47,095 nucleotides of DNA from an uncultured Candidatus Competibacteraceae bacterium. Its GTDB lineage: Bacteria; Pseudomonadota; Gammaproteobacteria; Competibacterales; Competibacteraceae. The number at the start of each line of letters is the position of its first letter. Within the stretch, counting starts at the first letter, position 1. The notes below the pieces were generated by a model that saw nothing but the letters and a program-made list of their open reading frames with translations, did not search any database and was not told the origin of the DNA. Location of the stretch: NCBI GenBank assembly GCA_964527085.1, contig CAZGON010000003.1, positions 1 to 47,095 on the forward strand, given 5' to 3'. Of the stretch, positions 35,708-43,885 are shown one piece after another. The position numbers were made by a program, and so were the translations under genes.

Positions 35708-35780
35708 TTTTATAATCTTTAGCCGAATTCATCTCAAACACTAAAGATGTTTGAGTTTTCTTCGGCTAAAGATTATAAAA
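35708..35780. promoter_or_regulatory. nested perfect inverted repeat in the divergent intergenic region
   Basis: The outer 20-bp arms 35708-35727 'ttttataatctttagccgaa' and 35761-35780 'ttcggctaaagattataaaa' are exact reverse complements. Inner 8-bp arms are 'ctcaaaca' (35733-35740) and 'tgtttgag' (35748-35755). Confidence 0.6.
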
Positions 35781-35908
35781 GTAAACGCGTGGATGAAGAC
35801 AAGACCCAAAATGGGTGAAACTGCACTATAAATTGATTAAGCTTGAGAAATACTGGCGACGCCAATTCCATTGACCTTGTCATGGCGCCTATCAGGAAAC
35901 GAGCAACT

Positions 35909-37012
35909 ATGGATGATCAATTTTTTGCAAGACCCATTCTAAACTCGCCTTATGAGTGCCCGTCACGGCATTGGGAACTAGACGATAGTGGTCAGCCGAC
36001 ACAACGGATCATTGAAACGCGGCGTCCGGCAGAGTTCATCACGCCGATTCCGAAGCCTAAAAAGCGCAAAGAAACGGCCCATCAGCAAGCGCTGGTTTTC
36101 GACGAAGGCAAAGGCTTATCGACGCAGGATCAGCAGTATGACCATACCGCCATCATCACTGGCGTTCGCCAGCAAGTAGACCGGTGGCGTAATTTGCCCA
36201 ATTCAAACCAGTGGCGGGTCACCCCAGAAACGGCGCGTCTGCTGCAGCACTGGCGTCACCATGAATTCAGCGGTATCCGACCCTTCTTTTGTCAGGTGGA
36301 AGCCGTTGAGACCGTCATCTGGTTGACCGAAGTCGCGCCTCACACGGGCAACCTAGGTAAGAATTACCTGGAACATCTAGCCAATGCTAACCTTGATGCT
36401 AATCCAAATTTGGTGCGGTTGGCGCTTAAATTGGCCACCGGCGCTGGCAAAACCACGGTCATGGCAATGCTTATCGCCTGGCAGACCATCAATGCCGTGC
36501 GCAGACCCCAGAGCAAGCGCTTCACCCGCGGCTTTTTGATCATCGCCCCTGGCTTAACCATCCGTGACCGCCTGCGCGTATTGCAACCCAACGATCCGGA
36601 CAGCTACTACCAGAGCCGTGAACTGGTTCCCAGCGATATGCTGATTGACTTGGATCGCGCCAAAATAGTCATCACTAATTATCATGCTTTTAAACTGCGG
36701 GAGCGGATGGCGCTTTCTAAGGGTGGTCGTTCGCTGCTCCAGGGCCGCGGTGAGGGGCTTAATACATTGGAAACGGAAGGCCAGATGTTGCAAAGGCTTA
36801 TGCCCGAACTGATGGGTATGAAGAATATCCTGGTGCTCAACGACGAGGCCCATCATTGCTATCGGGAAAAACCGAGCCGCGACGAAGAAGGCGGGCTTCC
36901 TTGGCGGAGCGTGAAGGACTGCGCGGCAAGGTGCAATGTATTTATCTTGATCCACCCTATGGTATTAAATTCAACTCAAATTTTCAGTGGTCTACCACCA
37001 GCCGCGATGTGA
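35909..37012 (+). pseudogene. Type III-like restriction subunit (Res, SF2 helicase), N-terminal fragment only
   Basis: 'FFARPILNSPYECPSRHWELDDSGQPTQRII' Res-type N-terminus, Walker A 'ATGAGKTTVMA', motif II 'LNDEAHHCYR'. Family-like sequence stops near 36890 and helicase motifs III-VI are absent. The frame then runs 39 unrelated codons to a stop at 37012. Confidence 0.75.
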
Positions 37013-39237
37013 AGGACGGTAATGCTGACCACATTACCCGCGAACCGGAGCAAGTGAAGGCGTTTCGGGATACTTGGCGTGATGGGATTCATTCTTATTT
37101 GACCTATCTGCGGGATAGGCTAACTGTAGCGCGGGATTTGTTGGCGGATAGTGGATCGATCTTTGTGCAGATTGGGGATGAGAATGTCGGCCGCGTGAGA
37201 CTGCTTATGGATGAGGTTTTTGGAGAGGATAACTTGGTTGCATTGATTGCCTACGCGAAGACAACAGGTTTCTCGGGAAACTTTCTTTCTTCTGTTTGTG
37301 ATTATCTGGTTTGGTACTCGAAATCGCTTCCTGCTTTAAAATATCGACCACTATTTCAGACTAAAGAAGCGGGTGAAGAAGGAGCGTCTAAGTATAAACC
37401 AGCATCTTCCATTCGAGCTTTAAAAAATTATGCCGTGGAACCGATGCGCCTTGCGACGTCAGATCAGCTGACGTCGCAAGGCGCATCGCCAAATTCAGAT
37501 CAGATATTTAGATTTAGGTCTAACGAGTGGACACCATCTAATGGTCTCCACTGGAAAACTACTGTTGTAGGACTTAGCAGAGTTGTAAAAGCAGAACGTA
37601 TTATTCATGAAGGTAAATCTATACGTTATGTTCGCTTTTTGGATGACTTCGCAATCTATCCACGCACTAATGTTTGGTTAGACGTGGGAGGTGTACAAAG
37701 CCGAACCGATCCAAAGATTTACGTTGTGCAAACTGCTACAGAAGCGGTAAAGCGCTGTCTGCTAATGGCTACCGACCCCGGCGACCTCGTCCTCGACCCC
37801 ACCTGCGGCTCCGGCACTACCGCCTACGTCGCCGAACAATGGGGTCGCCGGTGGATCACCATCGACACATCCCGCGTTGCGCTTGCCCTCGCACGCGCCC
37901 GCATCATGGGCGCACACTACCCTTATTATTTGTTGGCCGATAGCCCAGAAGGGCAGCAGAAAGAGGCTGAGATCACACGTACAGCACCCTCCACTTCACA
38001 GACGCGCCACGACATCCGCCATGGTTTTGTCTATGAGCGGGTGCCCCATATTACCCTGAAATCCATCGCCAATAACGCCGAAATCGACGTCATCTGGGAT
38101 AAATATCAGCAGACCCTCGAACCCTTACGCGAAGGGCTAAACAAAGCCCTAGGCCAGCAGTGGCAGGAATGGGAAATCCCGCGAGAAGCCAACCCAGAAT
38201 GGTCTGCACCTGCAAAAAAACTGCATCCCGATTGGTGGGAACAGCGTATATCCCGACAGAAAGAGACCAATGCTTCAATCGCGGCTAAAGCCGACTACGA
38301 GTACCTCTACGATAAACCCTACGAAGACAAGAACATCGTGCGGGTGGCCGGTCCTTTCACCGTCGAGAGCCTGTCGCCCCATCGGGTGTTGGGCGTCGAT
38401 GAAAACGACGAACTCATCGACAGTGTCGCCGACGGCCATGGAGGCTATAGCGAAGAACGGGATTTCGTGCAGATGATTCTCGAAAATCTCAAAACCGCTG
38501 GCGTTCAGCAAGCCCATAAGGAAGACAAAATAACCTTCACATCCCTTAAGCCCTGGCCGGGTAATCTGATCTGCGCTGAAGGGCGCTATTTCAAAGGCCA
38601 TGAGGAATCGGGTGAGGAGGAACGCGCCGCGATCTTTATCGGCCCGGAGTTTGGCACGGTTTCCCGACCTGACCTGGTGGCTGCAGCCCGCGAAGCCGGC
38701 GATGCTGATTTCGACGTGCTCATCGCCTGTGCGTTTAACTACGACGCTCACTCGTCGGAGTTCGACAAGGTCGGTCGGATTCCCGTGCTCAAGGCACGCA
38801 TGAATGCCGACTTACATATGGCAGATGATCTCAAGAACACGGGTAAGGGCAATCTGTTTGTAATCTTTGGCGAGCCGGATATGGATATCCTCGCTGCCGA
38901 GGATGGGCAGATACAGGTCAAAATCAATGGTGTTGATGTTTTCCATCCTAATACGGGGGAAGTGCGCTCCGATGGTGCCGAGGGTATCGCCTGCTGGTTT
39001 ATCGATACGGACTACAACGAAGAGGGTTTTTTCGTGCGCCATGCCTACTTTCTCGGCGCTAACGACCCTTACAAAGCCCTCAAGACCACCTTGAAGGCCG
39101 AGATCAATGAAGACGCTTGGGAGACTCTTCACAGCGATACCTCGCGCCCGTTCCCTAAACCGAAATCGGGACGGATAGCCGTCAAGGTCATCAATTACCT
39201 GGGCGATGAAGTCATGAAGGTGTTTCGGGTGGGTTGA
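36856..39237 (+). CDS. beta-class N6/N4 DNA methyltransferase (Type III Mod-like), N-terminally truncated
   Basis: Motif IV 'IYLDPPYG' comes before motif I 'LVLDPTCGSGTTAYVAEQWGRRWITID', with a low-GC segment between them. The expected upstream segment (about 15 aa, the N.LI.GDN.. motif before SLAEREGL) is missing. The only in-frame start is TTG 36856, inside the Res fragment. Confidence 0.75.
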   Translation: MLSGKTEPRRRRRASLAEREGLRGKVQCIYLDPPYGIKFNSNFQWSTTSRDVKDGNADHITREPEQVKAFRDTWRDGIHSYLTYLRDRLTVARDLLADSGSIFVQIGDENVGRVRLLMDEVFGEDNLVALIAYAKTTGFSGNFLSSVCDYLVWYSKSLPALKYRPLFQTKEAGEEGASKYKPASSIRALKNYAVEPMRLATSDQLTSQGASPNSDQIFRFRSNEWTPSNGLHWKTTVVGLSRVVKAERIIHEGKSIRYVRFLDDFAIYPRTNVWLDVGGVQSRTDPKIYVVQTATEAVKRCLLMATDPGDLVLDPTCGSGTTAYVAEQWGRRWITIDTSRVALALARARIMGAHYPYYLLADSPEGQQKEAEITRTAPSTSQTRHDIRHGFVYERVPHITLKSIANNAEIDVIWDKYQQTLEPLREGLNKALGQQWQEWEIPREANPEWSAPAKKLHPDWWEQRISRQKETNASIAAKADYEYLYDKPYEDKNIVRVAGPFTVESLSPHRVLGVDENDELIDSVADGHGGYSEERDFVQMILENLKTAGVQQAHKEDKITFTSLKPWPGNLICAEGRYFKGHEESGEEERAAIFIGPEFGTVSRPDLVAAAREAGDADFDVLIACAFNYDAHSSEFDKVGRIPVLKARMNADLHMADDLKNTGKGNLFVIFGEPDMDILAAEDGQIQVKINGVDVFHPNTGEVRSDGAEGIACWFIDTDYNEEGFFVRHAYFLGANDPYKALKTTLKAEINEDAWETLHSDTSRPFPKPKSGRIAVKVINYLGDEVMKVFRVG
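37442..37488. repeat. perfect 21-bp inverted repeat with a 5-nt loop inside the methyltransferase CDS
   Basis: 37442-37462 'cgatgcgccttgcgacgtcag' and 37468-37488 'ctgacgtcgcaaggcgcatcg' pair at all 21 positions (checked base by base). The loop is 'atcag'. Confidence 0.95.
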
Positions 39238-41309
39238 TGGAATTTCGTATCGCCGTCACCTTTACCGATAGCCTCGCCAAACTTACCGGCGAGGAACAAA
39301 AGGCCATCAAGATGACGGCCTTCGACCTGCAACTGAACCCGGCCAATCCCGGTATGCAGTTTCACAAATTGAATGCGGCGCGGGATCCCAATTTCTGGTC
39401 TGTTCGCGTCAGCTGTGATATTCGGCTGATTGTTCACCGCACCGCAGAAAGTTTATTGTTATGCTACGTGGACCATCACGATAAGGCGTACCGATGGGCT
39501 GAGCAGCGCAAACTGGAAACCCACCCTAAAACCGGCGCCGCACAGCTCGTGGAGATACGGGAGACGATCAAGGAGGTTATTGTTCCGAAGTACGTCGAGG
39601 GTGAGCAGCCAGCATCCGTGAAGCCGGTTCTGTTTTCCGGTGTGTCTGACGAAGAACTGCTTGGATATGGGGTACCCGTAGAGTGGCTGGATGATGTGCG
39701 CCAGGCGAACGAAGATAATCTGCTCGAACTGGTCGACCATTTACCCAGTGAGGCGGCCGAGGCGCTGCTTGAATTAGCCACCGGTGGTCAACCGCAGTTT
39801 GCATTACCCCAGGCGCTGGATATTGATCCCTTTGAGCACCCAGACGCACAACGACGGTTCCGGGTGGTTACAGACATCGACGAACTGGCGCGGGCGCTGG
39901 ATTACCCTTGGGAGAAGTGGACAATCTTTCTGCATCCTGCCCAGGGACAGATCGTCGAGAAAGACTACAACGGCCCCGCTCGGGTATCGGGATCCGCGGG
40001 TACCGGAAAAACCATTGTTGCATTGCACCGAGCGGTATTTCTAGCCCGCCGCCATCCCGATGCGCGGGTTCTGCTCACCACCTTCTCTGACACCCTTGCC
40101 CATGCTTTGCAAACAAAACTGGCGCGCTTGATCAGCAACCAACCGCGACTGGGTGAACGGCTGGAAGTGCACTCTATCAACAGGATTGGGCAGCGGTTGT
40201 ATGAGTCACACTTCGGACATCCAAACATTGCATCCCAGGACACGATCCAGCACTTGCTCGCGGAAGCAGCGAAAGAAATCGACGGGCATAAGTTTAGTTT
40301 GCGTTTTTTGCTGACTGAATGGGAAGAAATTGTCGATGCCTGGCAGTTACAGACCTGGGAAGCCTATCGCGATGTTAGGCGGTTGGGCCGAAAAACCCGT
40401 TTGCCCGAGCAACAGCGTGCCTTGCTTTGGTCGATCTTTGATCGCGTCCGCTTGCACCTGGAAAACCGTGGACTGGTCACCTTTCCTGGATTATTTAACC
40501 GGTTGGCTGGGCAGCTTGCCGGTTTAAAACATCCCATCTTTGACTTTATTGTCGTGGACGAAGCCCAGGATATCAGCGTTGCCCAGTTACGGTTTCTGGC
40601 AGCACTGGGAAACCAACGGCCAAATAGCCTGTTTTTTGCTGGCGATTTGGGTCAACGGATCTTCCAGCAACCGTTCTCCTGGACAGTGCTGGGTGTGGAT
40701 ATCCGGGGTCGTTCCCGCACGCTGCATATCAACTACCGCACCTCGCATCAAATTAGAATGCACGCCGATCGCTTACTGGGACCACAAGTATCCGATGTGG
40801 ATGGCAATACTGAAGAGCGGCGTGGCACTGTGTCAGTATTCAATGGGCCAATTCCCACCATACAGGTTTTGGATAGTGTTGAAGAAGAATGCAAAGCTGT
40901 CGGCACATGGTTGTCAGATCGAAGTAATGAAGGTGTGCTATCCCATGAAATGGGCGTCTTCGTTCGCTCCGCTATGGAGTTGGAGCGGGCATGCTCAGCG
41001 GTGGAAGCTGCTGGCCTGCTGTACAAAGTACTCGACGAGAACCTAGAAACAGTCAGCGGATATGTTTCCATCAGCACCATGCACCTTGCCAAAGGTTTAG
41101 AATTTCGTGCGATTGTGGTGATGGCCTGTGACGATGAGGTCATTCCATTACAAGAACGGATTGAGACAGTAGCCGATGATGCGGATTTAGAAGAAGTTTA
41201 TAACACGGAACGCCACCTATTGTACGTGGCCTGTACCCGAGCGCGAGACCAGTTACTGGTGACGAGTGTCGATCCTGCATCAGAGTTTCTTGATGATCTG
41301 CATATGTGA
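39237..41309 (+). CDS. RelE/ParE-like N-terminal domain fused to a UvrD/Rep-type SF1 helicase
   Basis: The ATG overlaps the methyltransferase TGA by 1 nt (TGATG). Residues about 1-95 ('FHKLNAARDPNFWSVRVSCDIRLIVHRTAESLLLCYVDHHDKAY') resemble the RelE/ParE toxin pattern. Helicase motifs: 'GSAGTGKT', 'VVDEAQD', 'INYRTSHQI', 'STMHLAKGLEF', 'LLYVACTRARDQL'. Confidence 0.8.
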   Translation: MEFRIAVTFTDSLAKLTGEEQKAIKMTAFDLQLNPANPGMQFHKLNAARDPNFWSVRVSCDIRLIVHRTAESLLLCYVDHHDKAYRWAEQRKLETHPKTGAAQLVEIRETIKEVIVPKYVEGEQPASVKPVLFSGVSDEELLGYGVPVEWLDDVRQANEDNLLELVDHLPSEAAEALLELATGGQPQFALPQALDIDPFEHPDAQRRFRVVTDIDELARALDYPWEKWTIFLHPAQGQIVEKDYNGPARVSGSAGTGKTIVALHRAVFLARRHPDARVLLTTFSDTLAHALQTKLARLISNQPRLGERLEVHSINRIGQRLYESHFGHPNIASQDTIQHLLAEAAKEIDGHKFSLRFLLTEWEEIVDAWQLQTWEAYRDVRRLGRKTRLPEQQRALLWSIFDRVRLHLENRGLVTFPGLFNRLAGQLAGLKHPIFDFIVVDEAQDISVAQLRFLAALGNQRPNSLFFAGDLGQRIFQQPFSWTVLGVDIRGRSRTLHINYRTSHQIRMHADRLLGPQVSDVDGNTEERRGTVSVFNGPIPTIQVLDSVEEECKAVGTWLSDRSNEGVLSHEMGVFVRSAMELERACSAVEAAGLLYKVLDENLETVSGYVSISTMHLAKGLEFRAIVVMACDDEVIPLQERIETVADDADLEEVYNTERHLLYVACTRARDQLLVTSVDPASEFLDDLHM

Positions 41310-41463: not shown

Positions 41464-41489
41464 TGCCATGTTCATGGCAAGGAATTTTT
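41464..41489 (+). terminator. candidate intrinsic terminator between the convergent helicase and asmA genes
   Basis: Stem 'tgccatg'/'catggca' (41464-41479) followed by 'aggaattttt'. The stem is short and the loop tight, so this is weak. Confidence 0.3.
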
Positions 41490-43885
41490 CAAAAAAGCTT
41501 TTTTAAGGCGTCCCTTGCTTTATCTTCCAGATTTTGCTCGTCTGTTTGTTTACCTTGCGCACCACCCGGTGCTTGAAGCTTTTTCATCTGTTTCTGCAGT
41601 AAACCTTGCGCTTCCTGTTTGAGTTCATCCTGTTGTTCTTTGACCAGGGTCTCTGTGCGAGCTTTAAGTAATCCTGCGATATCTAGCGCATAGCGTGGTT
41701 CTGCTAGAGGACCTGTCACCTTGATCGGTATGGGAACCCCCCTTAACTCCGATAGGTCTTCTCCGCCTTGTCCTTGAGCCGTACCGACCACCGTTGTGAC
41801 AAGCTGATAGTCGACTTCCTCTTGAACCAGATTAGCTGCCCCTTGTCCCCTGATGCGCAGCAAAGGAGATTTAGCTAATAGATCATCGTTTTTGGCTAGA
41901 CCATTAGTAAATTGTACGCTACCGCTGAGTTCGGAAAAATCTGTTTGCGCTGTGGCTTGCTGTTCAGGCGGAAGGGATTGACCTGCCAGAGCGGCTTTAG
42001 CTTGCCGGATCAAGCGGCCAAGATTGACGCCTTTTACAGCGCCATTACGAAAGGTAAAACGGGTTACTCCGTTAAGACTGCGTTTTATAGCCGCTGCATC
42101 GACGCCTTGCCAACTAAGTTGGGTATTCAATTGGGCAGTGCCCATCAGGCGATCTTCACCCATCAAATCCTTGAGTAACGGTCCGGCTTGAATCCCCGTC
42201 AAAACGTTATCTAACGCCATGCGCGGTTGTTGGCCGGTGGCATCGAGGGTAATACCGCTTTGCAAGGCGCCTTGATAGAGTTTTGCGGTCACTGGTTGCA
42301 AGGTGAGGATGCCTTGTTTGGCTTTGACGGGCACACGAATATCGCGGGTCTTTAGCTTAGCCGCCGTCAGCTGACCGATGCGCAACTCCCCGTCAACATC
42401 CAGTTGGCGCAGGGGTTCCAGGGAAACTGTTTCAGTGGCAGGGGAAGAAGGCGGGGAATTGGCTGGTGCTGTTTCCTCAGTAGGCGGAGGAAGATAGCGA
42501 TCAAGATTAAGGTTGTCGACCTCTAAATCAAAACGGATGGTTGGTCCTTGTAGATCGGGGACATTGAGATTGCCCGTTAACTGGCTATTGTCCAACTGCA
42601 CTTTGATGGGGTCGAGGGCCACACTACTAGGAGACGCGGTAAACTGAGTCGTCATGACGCCTTTCGTGAGGGCATTGGCATCGGCTGTGTCAGGCGCCGA
42701 TTGACCCAACCGGGTTAGCAATTGGCGCGGGTTAAACGGATCTATCTGCAGAGCGCCACGGAATTGCGGTTGAGCCATAAGGTTCTGACCGATAAGACGA
42801 CCCGCCAACTGTAAACCCAAGGTACTGATTTGCAGCTTCTCGACGGCGAGGGTCTCTTTTGCAATATTGAACTGGGCATTGGCGGTAAGGTCAAGGTCGA
42901 AATTGCCCCCGGGCAGCCCGTCGCCTTGTAGGTTTCCGGTGAGTTTTAAGGTGCTCATCCGATAGATGTTGCCATCGCCCTCGAGCACACCTTGTAGCAC
43001 GACCTCGCCGCCACTGAGGCCAGTGCCAGGGGCTTTTAGGTCACTGACCGCAAGCTTTAAACCTTGTATTAACAAAGCTTGATTAGCGATGTTCAGTGTC
43101 GCATTAGTGGTACTTAGCCCTAGAACGGCAGCCATAATCGGTTGTTCTGCCTGGATGTCGGTGTCTAGTTTAAGATCTTTGATAGATAAGATTTGGGTAT
43201 CGGGTGCGAAATTGACTTCCCCAGTCAGTACTAAGGCTGCCGCTAGAGGAGGATTAGCTGTGGTCAGTTGCAGTTGGCTGTCCACCGTAAACGGTTGCCC
43301 CAACTGGATGGCGCTTGTTTCTAAAGCAAAATCTTTAATGCGGTAACGTTGCCCGGTGGCGCGGTCATCCCAGAGAATTTGGGCGTCACGAATGTCTAGG
43401 CCATTAATACTCAATTGGTTTAACGATAAATCTTGCGACGACTCTGAGGGTTCTGTTTGGGGGGCGGGCTGTTCCACCTGGCGAGCCATCAGTGCTTGCC
43501 AATTTCCCTGTCCGGCTTGGTTAACCTCTAGGTTGAGTCGCAGTCCTTGAACCGTAATGGTGTCAAGTTCTATCTCCCTCTGTAGCAACGGCAACAATTT
43601 AACTTGCATCGTTATTTGTTCCGCCTGGGCAAAGATTTCTTGGCTATAGCCTGGCGCATTACCCAATTGCACAGCCTCTAGTTGCATCCCTAGCCAAGGT
43701 AACAATGAAAATTCAATAGCACCCCCGATGGTGAGTTTAATGCCTGTTTTCTGTTCCACCTGGGCAGTAATTTCATCCTTAAAATCGTTGGCATCGAATA
43801 GCCAGGGAAGTATCAGCGCTATGACGAGAACCACCAGGAGAACAACACCGATTCCCCAGCCCAATAGTTTCAACAGGGTCTTCAT
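41489..43885 (-). CDS. asmA: AsmA-family outer-membrane biogenesis protein
   Basis: 798 aa. N-terminal TM anchor 'LLGWGIGVVLLVVLVIALILPWLF', a long beta-rich repetitive body, and a C-terminal AsmA-like segment ('FTFRNGAVKGVNLG'). Confidence 0.8.
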   Translation of the reverse strand: MKTLLKLLGWGIGVVLLVVLVIALILPWLFDANDFKDEITAQVEQKTGIKLTIGGAIEFSLLPWLGMQLEAVQLGNAPGYSQEIFAQAEQITMQVKLLPLLQREIELDTITVQGLRLNLEVNQAGQGNWQALMARQVEQPAPQTEPSESSQDLSLNQLSINGLDIRDAQILWDDRATGQRYRIKDFALETSAIQLGQPFTVDSQLQLTTANPPLAAALVLTGEVNFAPDTQILSIKDLKLDTDIQAEQPIMAAVLGLSTTNATLNIANQALLIQGLKLAVSDLKAPGTGLSGGEVVLQGVLEGDGNIYRMSTLKLTGNLQGDGLPGGNFDLDLTANAQFNIAKETLAVEKLQISTLGLQLAGRLIGQNLMAQPQFRGALQIDPFNPRQLLTRLGQSAPDTADANALTKGVMTTQFTASPSSVALDPIKVQLDNSQLTGNLNVPDLQGPTIRFDLEVDNLNLDRYLPPPTEETAPANSPPSSPATETVSLEPLRQLDVDGELRIGQLTAAKLKTRDIRVPVKAKQGILTLQPVTAKLYQGALQSGITLDATGQQPRMALDNVLTGIQAGPLLKDLMGEDRLMGTAQLNTQLSWQGVDAAAIKRSLNGVTRFTFRNGAVKGVNLGRLIRQAKAALAGQSLPPEQQATAQTDFSELSGSVQFTNGLAKNDDLLAKSPLLRIRGQGAANLVQEEVDYQLVTTVVGTAQGQGGEDLSELRGVPIPIKVTGPLAEPRYALDIAGLLKARTETLVKEQQDELKQEAQGLLQKQMKKLQAPGGAQGKQTDEQNLEDKARDALKKLF

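Follow-up and report, generated by a model that had tools for sequence, protein, structure and literature searches.

What is the purpose of a ribosome-toxin fold on a DNA helicase inside DNA-restriction systems? The question is raised by a gene in a 47,095-nucleotide (nt) stretch of DNA from an uncultured Candidatus Competibacteraceae bacterium (contig CAZGON010000003.1, assembly GCA_964527085.1; the whole stretch is referred to here as the window), which encodes a RelE-like N-terminal domain (N-domain) fused to a UvrD/GajB-like helicase. A preliminary description of this DNA had noted the fusion, had linked it to a neighbouring restriction-modification (R-M)-like unit, and had judged the combination unusual. 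In our analysis the observation was confirmed, the interpretation was partly supported, and the claim of novelty was refuted: the RelE-helicase architecture is common, is automatically annotated and has already been published as ArmD, a protein of the ARMADA type II defence system. What goes beyond the literature consulted is that the largest and most conserved branch of the family (about 70-80% identity over roughly 18 phylum-level groups) is tied to a type III-like R-M operon and not to ARMADA, that this operon of endonuclease (Res), methyltransferase (Mod) and helicase is a hotspot for many known defence systems, and that both branches keep, without variation, RelE-like residues that align with or adjoin the active site of YoeB, though ARMADA defence is non-abortive according to the available text of its description. 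The three-gene operon makes the question testable.

The N-terminal RelE-like domain

The first 95 residues had been assigned to the RelE/ParE pattern from their letters, and structure prediction bore this out. In an AlphaFold2 (AF2) model of residues 1-230 built on 35 homologues (alignment A1), residues 1-100 have a predicted local distance difference test (pLDDT) score of ~79 and a beta-alpha-alpha-beta-beta-beta-beta-alpha topology. When the model was compared with the PDB by Foldseek, all of the first 41 hits and the majority of the first 50 were toxins of the RelE/ParE superfamily (RelE/YoeB/YafQ/HigB/ParE). The top match was M. jannaschii RelE (3bpq_B, E 2.3e-5, target-normalised template-modelling (TM) score 0.77), followed by YoeB, T. 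thermophilus RelE, M. tuberculosis RelE proteins, YafQ, HigB and ParE, with TM scores of 0.6-0.77 for solved toxins; the CARF-RelE protein Cami1 (8phj_X) was also among the structural matches. As modelled, residues 1-95 thus have the fold of the RelE/ParE superfamily. The full-length AlphaFold model was poor (pLDDT 61.5, predicted TM score 0.35) and was excluded from the domain-packing and Foldseek analysis.

At the level of sequence, the indications of toxin-family membership appear weak but consistent. The first 228 residues alone gave a weak match to Pfam HigB-like_toxin (E 0.05), and all 10 of 10 diverse N-domains matched the same family, each below its gathering score (best E 4e-5; 14.5-16 bits vs 27), while single-sequence searches with the N-domain against PDB sequences, NCBIfam and PADLOC returned nothing significant. 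A profile of ten N-domains (alignment A3) aligned residues about 51-81 with about 53-83 of YoeB (hhalign E 2.6e-5, probability 75%), and in the profile alignments R63 pairs with YoeB R65 and H81 with YoeB H83. The catalytic set of YoeB comprises E46, R65, H83 and Y84. Position 43 of the window protein appears by eye to match E46, the tool alignments starting only at residue 51.

The conservation of individual residues was assessed in an alignment of eight proteins from both branches of the family, with identities as low as 26% (alignment A4). Within the N-domain, M1, F9, P35, R63, H81, D82, A84 and Y85 alone show no variation, and the R...HD.AY motif is common to the window's clade and the ARMADA-linked proteins. 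Its C-terminal part, HD.AY, is similar to the ends of YoeB and HigB, which bear His and Tyr. Mean pairwise identity is 78.5% in the N-domain vs 69.7% in the helicase core. Judged from sequence, this conservation fits a retained RNA-directed activity or binding site, and does not of itself prove catalysis.

No small gene lies between Mod and the helicase in the window or in 10 other loci, so an adjacent antitoxin gene is absent from them. A classical RelBE toxin-antitoxin (TA) module was rejected because there is no neighbouring antitoxin gene.

The linker and the helicase core

The order of domains given in the preliminary description, with an N-domain, a helix-rich linker and a complete superfamily 1 (SF1) helicase core, held up. 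Directly after the RelE-like domain, a beta-hairpin (residues 96-107) is the most conserved segment of the protein, with 88% mean pairwise identity, and is followed by a spacer with pLDDT <50 at residues 108-127 and 54% mean pairwise identity over residues 108-132. The linker module beyond it (residues 133-185) matched no Pfam family; its helices are modelled at residues 138-181 with pLDDT 83-87, and neither G145 nor P170 varies in either clade (A4).

Both helicase domains score over the curated Pfam cut-offs (UvrD-helicase 62 bits, residues 233-477; UvrD_C 54.6 bits, residues 604-677), and Walker A, DEAQD, GDLGQRIF, NYRTS and the C-terminal motifs line up with D. radiodurans UvrD (4c2u). The protein ends at residue 690, 13 residues past UvrD_C, and therefore has no room for a C-terminal nuclease domain, in agreement with what had been proposed. 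Among PADLOC models, the core scores best against NERD+UvrD (E 8.5e-28) and then against GajB (E 7.7e-25), with partial coverage of the models. Orthology to housekeeping UvrD, Rep, PcrA or HelD was rejected, as NCBIfam equivalogs gave 43-67 bits vs cut-offs of 419-1168 and the core measures only ~460 residues.

Association with a type III-like R-M operon

The functional tie to an R-M-like unit, which the preliminary description had only suggested, is strongly supported by synteny. We compared the context of the gene in 87 related loci (L001-L087). Of the 64 loci whose sequence extends at least 3 kb upstream of the helicase, 62 have a co-oriented Mod homologue there, and a Res homologue of ~1019 residues is present upstream in 43 of the 47 that extend at least 9 kb. 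Full-length Res belongs to the NCBIfam 'BPTD_3080 family restriction endonuclease' (NF046055, 1402 bits vs a cut-off of 800) and contains Pfam ResIII; Mod is a beta-class N6_N4 enzyme of ~920 residues (Pfam N6_N4_Mtase) that scores 1253 bits against PADLOC MTase_III. The bare three-gene operon is annotated by PGAP on the Pseudomonas avellanae plasmid p1NCPPB4222 (18967-27027), and a small excisionase-type helix-turn-helix (HTH) gene stands immediately 5' of Res in three annotated loci (L001, L004 and L007). In the window, the ATG of the helicase gene shares bases with the TGA stop of the Mod gene (TGATG, read from the sequence).

The helicase has also diverged together with its partners. Across 27 complete loci, its divergence tracks that of Mod (Spearman rho 0.45, Mantel p 0.0005) and that of Res (rho 0.36, p 0.005). 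On plasmids, it is present in every intact locus with a Res at least 53% identical, the one exception being cut by Tn3. Taken together, the loci suggest that the layout in the window's clade is HTH - Res - Mod - variable defence cargo - helicase, with the helicase as the terminal and apparently co-inherited gene.

Several side observations concern the partner genes. Co-divergence of Mod and Res in the same 27 loci (rho 0.17, p 0.09) is looser than that of either with the helicase, and may reflect exchange of Mod target-recognition regions. The ~450 C-terminal residues of the ~920-residue Mod (window 37900-39231; L001:3262-6030) have no Pfam match, and the whole of Mod matches a single PADLOC model, MTase_III, end to end. 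No PADLOC model covers full-length Res, and BPTD_3080 R-M may therefore be under-called by PADLOC. The 60-residue HTH protein 5' of Res in L001 (17-199) scores 81.6 bits against NCBIfam MAD1 (cut-off 80) and also matches a generic excisionase domain. MADS was rejected as an assignment: neither the helicase nor Res has a MADS match, Mod matches mad2 at E 6e-9, far below its MTase_III match, and no other MADS component was found. In the same locus, from Sedimenticola selenatireducens, a gene for a 1559-residue protein without a family match (L001:12048-16727) overlaps the end of the helicase gene and is adjoined by a Gabija system and a ParE/Phd pair. In a distant BPTD_3080 locus on plasmid pAQ5 of Picosynechococcus PCC 7002 (L097), an ATPase-deaminase gene follows Mod: a protein with a P-loop and a cytidine-deaminase domain is encoded in the helicase's place (13717-15591), and Res is separated from Mod by a UPF0175/DUF3368 pair.

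Defence cargo between Mod and the helicase

In 12 loci, the window among them, no more than 32 nt separate Mod from the helicase, and in 8 loci the spacing is ~5 nt; the other loci have gaps of 0.07 to 9.9 kb. Mod stop and helicase start overlap in 11 loci, again including the window. The larger gaps hold a very diverse cargo of 133 open reading frames (ORFs) in 85 clusters, nearly all co-directional with the operon. Among representatives, we found complete known defence systems, namely IetA/IetS, Hachiman (HamA/HamB), AbiP2, SIR2-HerA, a GmrSD-like HEC-06/Orf5 protein and a reverse transcriptase (RT)-nitrilase; other loci carry SMC-like ATPases and HicB. There is often more cargo 3' of the helicase, with SbcCD-like, MukFEB-like and Fic proteins among it. 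Certain gap lengths are found repeatedly (about 1714, 1816 and 3565 nt), suggesting that phyla have cassettes in common.

Relation to ArmD and extent of the family

A fusion of a predicted RelE-like RNase with a GajB-like UvrD helicase is described as ArmD of ARMADA type II in the available text of that study (Bell et al., bioRxiv 2025.09.15.676423; PMC12458937). According to the same text, ARMADA II consists of ArmA (BrxHII-like), ArmB (a PglX-like gamma-class methyltransferase), ArmC (YprA/DruE-like) and ArmD; all four genes are essential for defence, and protection is abolished by ArmD K266A and weakened by D454N (PMC12458937). We measured the homology to ArmD through a homologue on an E. 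coli IncY plasmid (L091) and not through the ArmD sequence of NCTC 12900. This homologue is 32% identical to the window protein over 98% of its length (E 1e-77). With K266 as the Walker A lysine and D454 as the first residue of DEAQD, it agrees in numbering with the two residues changed in the ArmD mutants. It follows a large methyltransferase and a DruE/YprA-like giant helicase, a trio that is also present in Thermus, Allomeiothermus, Pseudanabaena and Tsukamurella.

Plasmid relatives fall into two groups, one including the window's clade (47-80% identical to the window protein) and a more distant one (30-38%, full length) that also includes proteins from E. coli and Klebsiella plasmids. In the distant group, the helicase comes right after a very large S-adenosylmethionine (SAM)-dependent methyltransferase and a DEAD/DEAH helicase of 1800-2100 residues that matches PADLOC DruE, and the arrangement is of the ARMADA type. 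This ArmABC-type context was seen only with these distant plasmid homologues. The window's clade is 47-80% identical internally vs 26-40% to the ARMADA-linked proteins.

The family is large. Counted as clusters at 90% identity, there are at least 8000 homologues of the full-length protein, and the best 120 are all ~690 residues long and 74-80% identical. At one genome per species, at least 591 representative genomes carry it; the best 80 of these carriers have proteins 66-76% identical and come from ~18 phylum-level groups, including Pseudomonadota, Acidobacteriota, Nitrospirota, Verrucomicrobiota, Chloroflexota, Planctomycetota, Bacillota and Actinomycetota. Such a broad spread points to wide horizontal transfer. 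Many clusters bear the JGI labels 'mRNA-degrading endonuclease RelE of RelBE toxin-antitoxin system' or 'superfamily I DNA/RNA helicase', or the combined RelE / superfamily I helicase, and NCBI labels include 'UvrD-helicase domain-containing protein', '3'-5' exonuclease' and, for fragments, 'RelE family toxin, partial'. With so many clusters, these names and the published ArmD, the view that the combination is unusual does not stand. A 2009 survey of type II TA systems (PMC2701414) mentions no helicase, and 'BPTD_3080' does not occur in the papers available.

Searching a representative library with the N-domain returned 2301 clusters, and those listed are mostly truncated fragments of the RelE-helicase family. 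Short matches with a seemingly stand-alone RelE domain were rejected as free toxins, as they are contig-end fragments or frameshifted genes. A decayed copy at L088:8001-10089, with Mod interrupted by insertion sequence (IS) elements and the helicase split into ORFs of 138 (P0167) and 565 residues, illustrates how split or decayed helicase genes give rise to many short 'RelE toxin' database entries.

The locus in the window

The coordinates of the features discussed are collected in Table 1. An R-M-like unit does lie upstream of the helicase gene, as the preliminary description had stated; that it is truncated by a deletion had been missed.

Table 1. Positions of the RelE-helicase gene, its domains and conserved residues, and the flanking features in the window
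Feature	Position	Strand	Evidence
Complete ORF, ArmD-like RelE-fold + UvrD/GajB-like helicase	39237..41309	+	Stop-free translation, 690 aa (amino acids)
RelE/YoeB-like domain, aa 1-95 (predicted)	39237..39521	+	AF2 model, Foldseek, YoeB alignment
H43 codon	39363-39365	+	His, Glu or Lys among relatives (alignment A4)
R63 codon	39423-39425	+	Invariant, both clades (alignment A4)
H81-D82 codons	39477-39482	+	Invariant, both clades (alignment A4)
Y85 codon	39489-39491	+	Invariant, both clades (alignment A4)
Conserved beta-hairpin extension, HP.TGA motif, aa 96-107	39522..39557	+	AF2 model, alignments
Variable low-confidence spacer, aa 108-132	39558..39632	+	AF2 pLDDT, identity
Conserved four-helix linker module, GVP.EWL ... 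HLP.EAAEALLELATGG, aa 133-185	39633..39791	+	AF2 model, alignment
Compact SF1A UvrD/GajB-like helicase core, aa 233-690	39933..41306	+	Pfam, PADLOC, UvrD 4c2u alignment
Walker A GSAGTGKT, residues 252-259	39990-40013	+	
DEAQD, residues 441-445	40557-40571	+	
Truncated Res, aa 1-330 of ~1019-aa BPTD_3080-family endonuclease, ending just past the DEAH motif (NDEAHH)	35909..36898	+	NF046055, tblastn
N-terminally truncated Mod, aa 144-922 of full-length homologue	36895..39237	+	tblastn vs L001 Mod (71% identity), PADLOC, Pfam
Deletion junction, Res codon 330 to Mod codon 144, different frames	36895..36898	.	tblastn, direct reading
tRNA-Thr (TGT), left border of ~7 kb decayed island	34192..34267	+	
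Convergent asmA-like gene, preceded by the island's right border	41489-43885		

The truncated Res matches positions 2-311 of 970 in NF046055 (452 bits vs the cut-off of 800) and is 82% identical by tblastn over query residues 1-330, and the ORF that contains it (35843-37012) continues out of frame past the junction. Mod homology extends over 36895-39231, within a mechanical ORF at 36856-39237. The truncated Mod keeps its DPPY motif (36947-36958), 17 codons past its start, with the rest of the enzyme intact, and matches profile positions 175-983 of PADLOC MTase_III (PDLC03632). The deletion removed ~2.5 kb in all: Res from codon 331 to codon 1019, the spacer between the two genes, and the first 143 codons of Mod. 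A programmed frameshift at the Res/Mod junction was considered and rejected, the A-run there being ordinary Res coding sequence in the wrong register. The window thus lacks the intact Res and Mod of a type III R-M system, and its unit is a deletion derivative.

Among 228 positions with conservation of at least 95% in the family, the helicase deviates from the consensus at only two (T26M and V626I), a usual number for a family member. Amid a decayed island, it is an orphan that has stayed intact and shows no sign of decay, and this decayed locus would be a poor experimental starting point.

The fraction of G+C falls to 0.45 across 34000-36000. Between tRNA-Thr and the truncated Res ORF (34268-35842) there are only small unannotated ORFs: one on the minus strand (~34790-34816) appears to start 'MPFKKGQSGNP...' and looks broken by a frameshift, and another (35256-35585, minus strand) encodes 109 residues that are Cys-rich with 'HPD' motifs. 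No att-like repeat of the tRNA-Thr 3' end was found at the right border of the island, no integrase ORF was seen within it, and the HTH gene found 5' of Res in other loci is absent from the window. About 60-130 nt before the truncated Res ORF, in the place held by the HTH gene in other loci, there is a 33-nt inverted repeat (35708-35780, 88% complementary with a loop of 7 nt) that may be an operator or terminator. A perfect 21-nt inverted repeat with a 5-nt loop lies inside the Mod coding region (37442-37488). Outside the island, a Sir2-family protein is encoded at 45241-46053 (Pfam SIR2, E 3.5e-40), which may be either a housekeeping deacetylase of the CobB type or a defence protein.

Proposed role and alternative explanations

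We think it moderately probable that the protein is an ArmD-type accessory defence helicase, encoded by the terminal gene of a type III-like R-M operon, in which the RelE-like domain serves as an RNA-directed effector or sensor. This proposal builds on the fold, the motifs, the synteny, the co-divergence with Mod and Res, the deletion in the window and the homology to a protein with ArmD's residue numbering. ARMADA II depends on ArmD and on the Walker A lysine of ArmD; by analogy, the ATPase of the window protein would act on invading DNA that is unmethylated or cleaved, and restriction by a methylation-based partner would require it. The RelE-like domain keeps the YoeB-like residue set (H/E43, R63, H81 and Y85) and is more conserved than the helicase. 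It has most likely retained RNA binding or cleavage, probably on ribosomes, and would then act as a helicase-gated effector or sensor rather than as a free toxin.

Several points weigh against this proposal. The N-domain stays below every Pfam toxin gathering threshold, with ParE_like, YoeB_toxin and YafQ_toxin matching more weakly than HigB-like_toxin; hhalign detected no similarity between the N-domain and E. coli RelE; and position 43 varies among H, E and K across A4. The analogy with ArmD rests on 32% identity and involves a different partner system. The available text of the ARMADA description reports no RelE-site mutant among the ArmD mutants, and presents ARMADA II protection as direct and non-abortive, without cell death or metabolic shutdown (PMC12458937); a role of the RelE domain as a global translation toxin is therefore disfavoured, at least in ARMADA II. 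On the plasmids searched, BPTD_3080 R-M loci with a Res at most 47% identical lack the helicase (pAQ5 is the one such locus inspected), so that the helicase is a clade-specific third component and appears not to be a universal requirement of BPTD_3080 R-M. Finally, the intact helicase beside a destroyed R-M unit may work on its own.

It is possible, if on the less probable side, that the RelE fold is a non-catalytic adaptor, either docking to Mod or Res or binding nucleic acid so as to tether the protein to RNA or ribosomes on foreign DNA, with the conserved residues retained for binding. The non-abortive defence by ARMADA II, as far as its description is available, the variation at the general-base position 43 and the sub-threshold scores against all toxin families agree with such a role. 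The association of the same N-domain with two unrelated partners, ArmABC and the type III-like Res-Mod, fits generic sensing or binding better than a partner-specific dock; a pure docking surface would be expected to differ between these partners, and the invariant residues align with or adjoin the catalytic Arg and His of YoeB, both of which argue against an adaptor. The same invariant YoeB-type residues, in what counts as the best-conserved part of the protein, would be expected of a latent toxin that guards the R-M system. Following the logic of PrrC/EcoprrI, an R-M-guarded anticodon nuclease, an active ribosome-dependent mRNase would be silenced by the helicase, the linker or Res-Mod and freed as an abortive back-up when a phage blocks or escapes restriction. 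The lack of an antitoxin gene means that any control would be exerted in cis or through partner proteins, the helicase is translationally coupled to Mod, and the structural match Cami1 (8phj_X) provides a precedent for a RelE-sensor fusion. We nevertheless regard a latent toxin as unlikely, since ArmD-dependent ARMADA II protects without cell death or metabolic shutdown in the available text and, in the window, Res-Mod has been destroyed while the helicase is intact, so that loss of the partners is evidently not lethal.

That intact orphan copy would suit a gene with no mechanistic link to restriction, whether a stand-alone defence gene or a recombination 'anchor' beside the cargo hotspot, as would the diverse complete defence systems between Mod and the helicase, the distant BPTD_3080 R-M loci without it on the searched plasmids, and the other downstream genes in pAQ5. 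Such independence is quite improbable, given that the gene is almost always syntenic with Mod and Res and co-diverges with them, that it directly adjoins Mod with stop/start overlap in 11 loci, and that the homologue ArmD is genetically essential to its own multi-gene system, as given in the available text. We would also entertain, as a speculative and rather unlikely extension of our proposal, a previously undescribed three-part module of BPTD_3080 Res, Mod and ArmD-like helicase in which the RelE-like domain is an active, helicase-gated mRNA interferase, and in which the end of the Mod gene and the start of the helicase gene, both highly conserved, act as recombination anchors for swapping whole defence systems across bacterial phyla. 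If true, this would add a translation-directed or ribosome-sensing arm to DNA restriction.

Comparison with known systems

The closest known counterpart is ArmD, with which the window protein shares the architecture of a RelE-like N-domain and a GajB-like UvrD helicase, and both close a methyltransferase-containing, helicase-rich defence operon. By contrast, the window's clade has no ArmABC upstream; its partners are the BPTD_3080 SF2 Res and the beta-class N6_N4 Mod, and it forms a separate branch in which 0-10 kb of defence cargo can separate Mod from the helicase. GajB of Gabija is likewise a compact SF1A defence helicase, although it has no RelE-like N-domain. Assignment to Gabija was rejected, as the GajB models match only partly and no gene for a GajA OLD-family nuclease lies near the helicase in the window.

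With the YoeB, HigB and RelE toxins, the N-domain shares the predicted fold and a YoeB-like segment (R63-R65, H81-H83); unlike them, it is not a free toxin of ~90 residues, has no adjacent antitoxin gene, and scores below the Pfam thresholds. Cami1 and PrrC/EcoprrI offer a broader likeness, in that a sensor or NTPase module within an immune system is joined to, or governs, an RNA-cutting domain, RNA cutting being putative in the window protein. Their sensor is a CARF or ABC-like NTPase module, whereas that of the window protein would be an SF1 helicase, and there is no homology outside the RelE fold.

The operon itself resembles type III R-M of the EcoP15I kind in its SF2 helicase-endonuclease Res (ResIII) and beta-class N6_N4 Mod, both of which are truncated in the window. 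An EcoP15I-type Mod has about 650 residues, whereas that of the clade has ~920, with an unannotated C-terminal half of ~450 residues. To the two genes of type III R-M, the clade adds a third conserved gene, the helicase, together with an HTH gene and an internal cargo hotspot.

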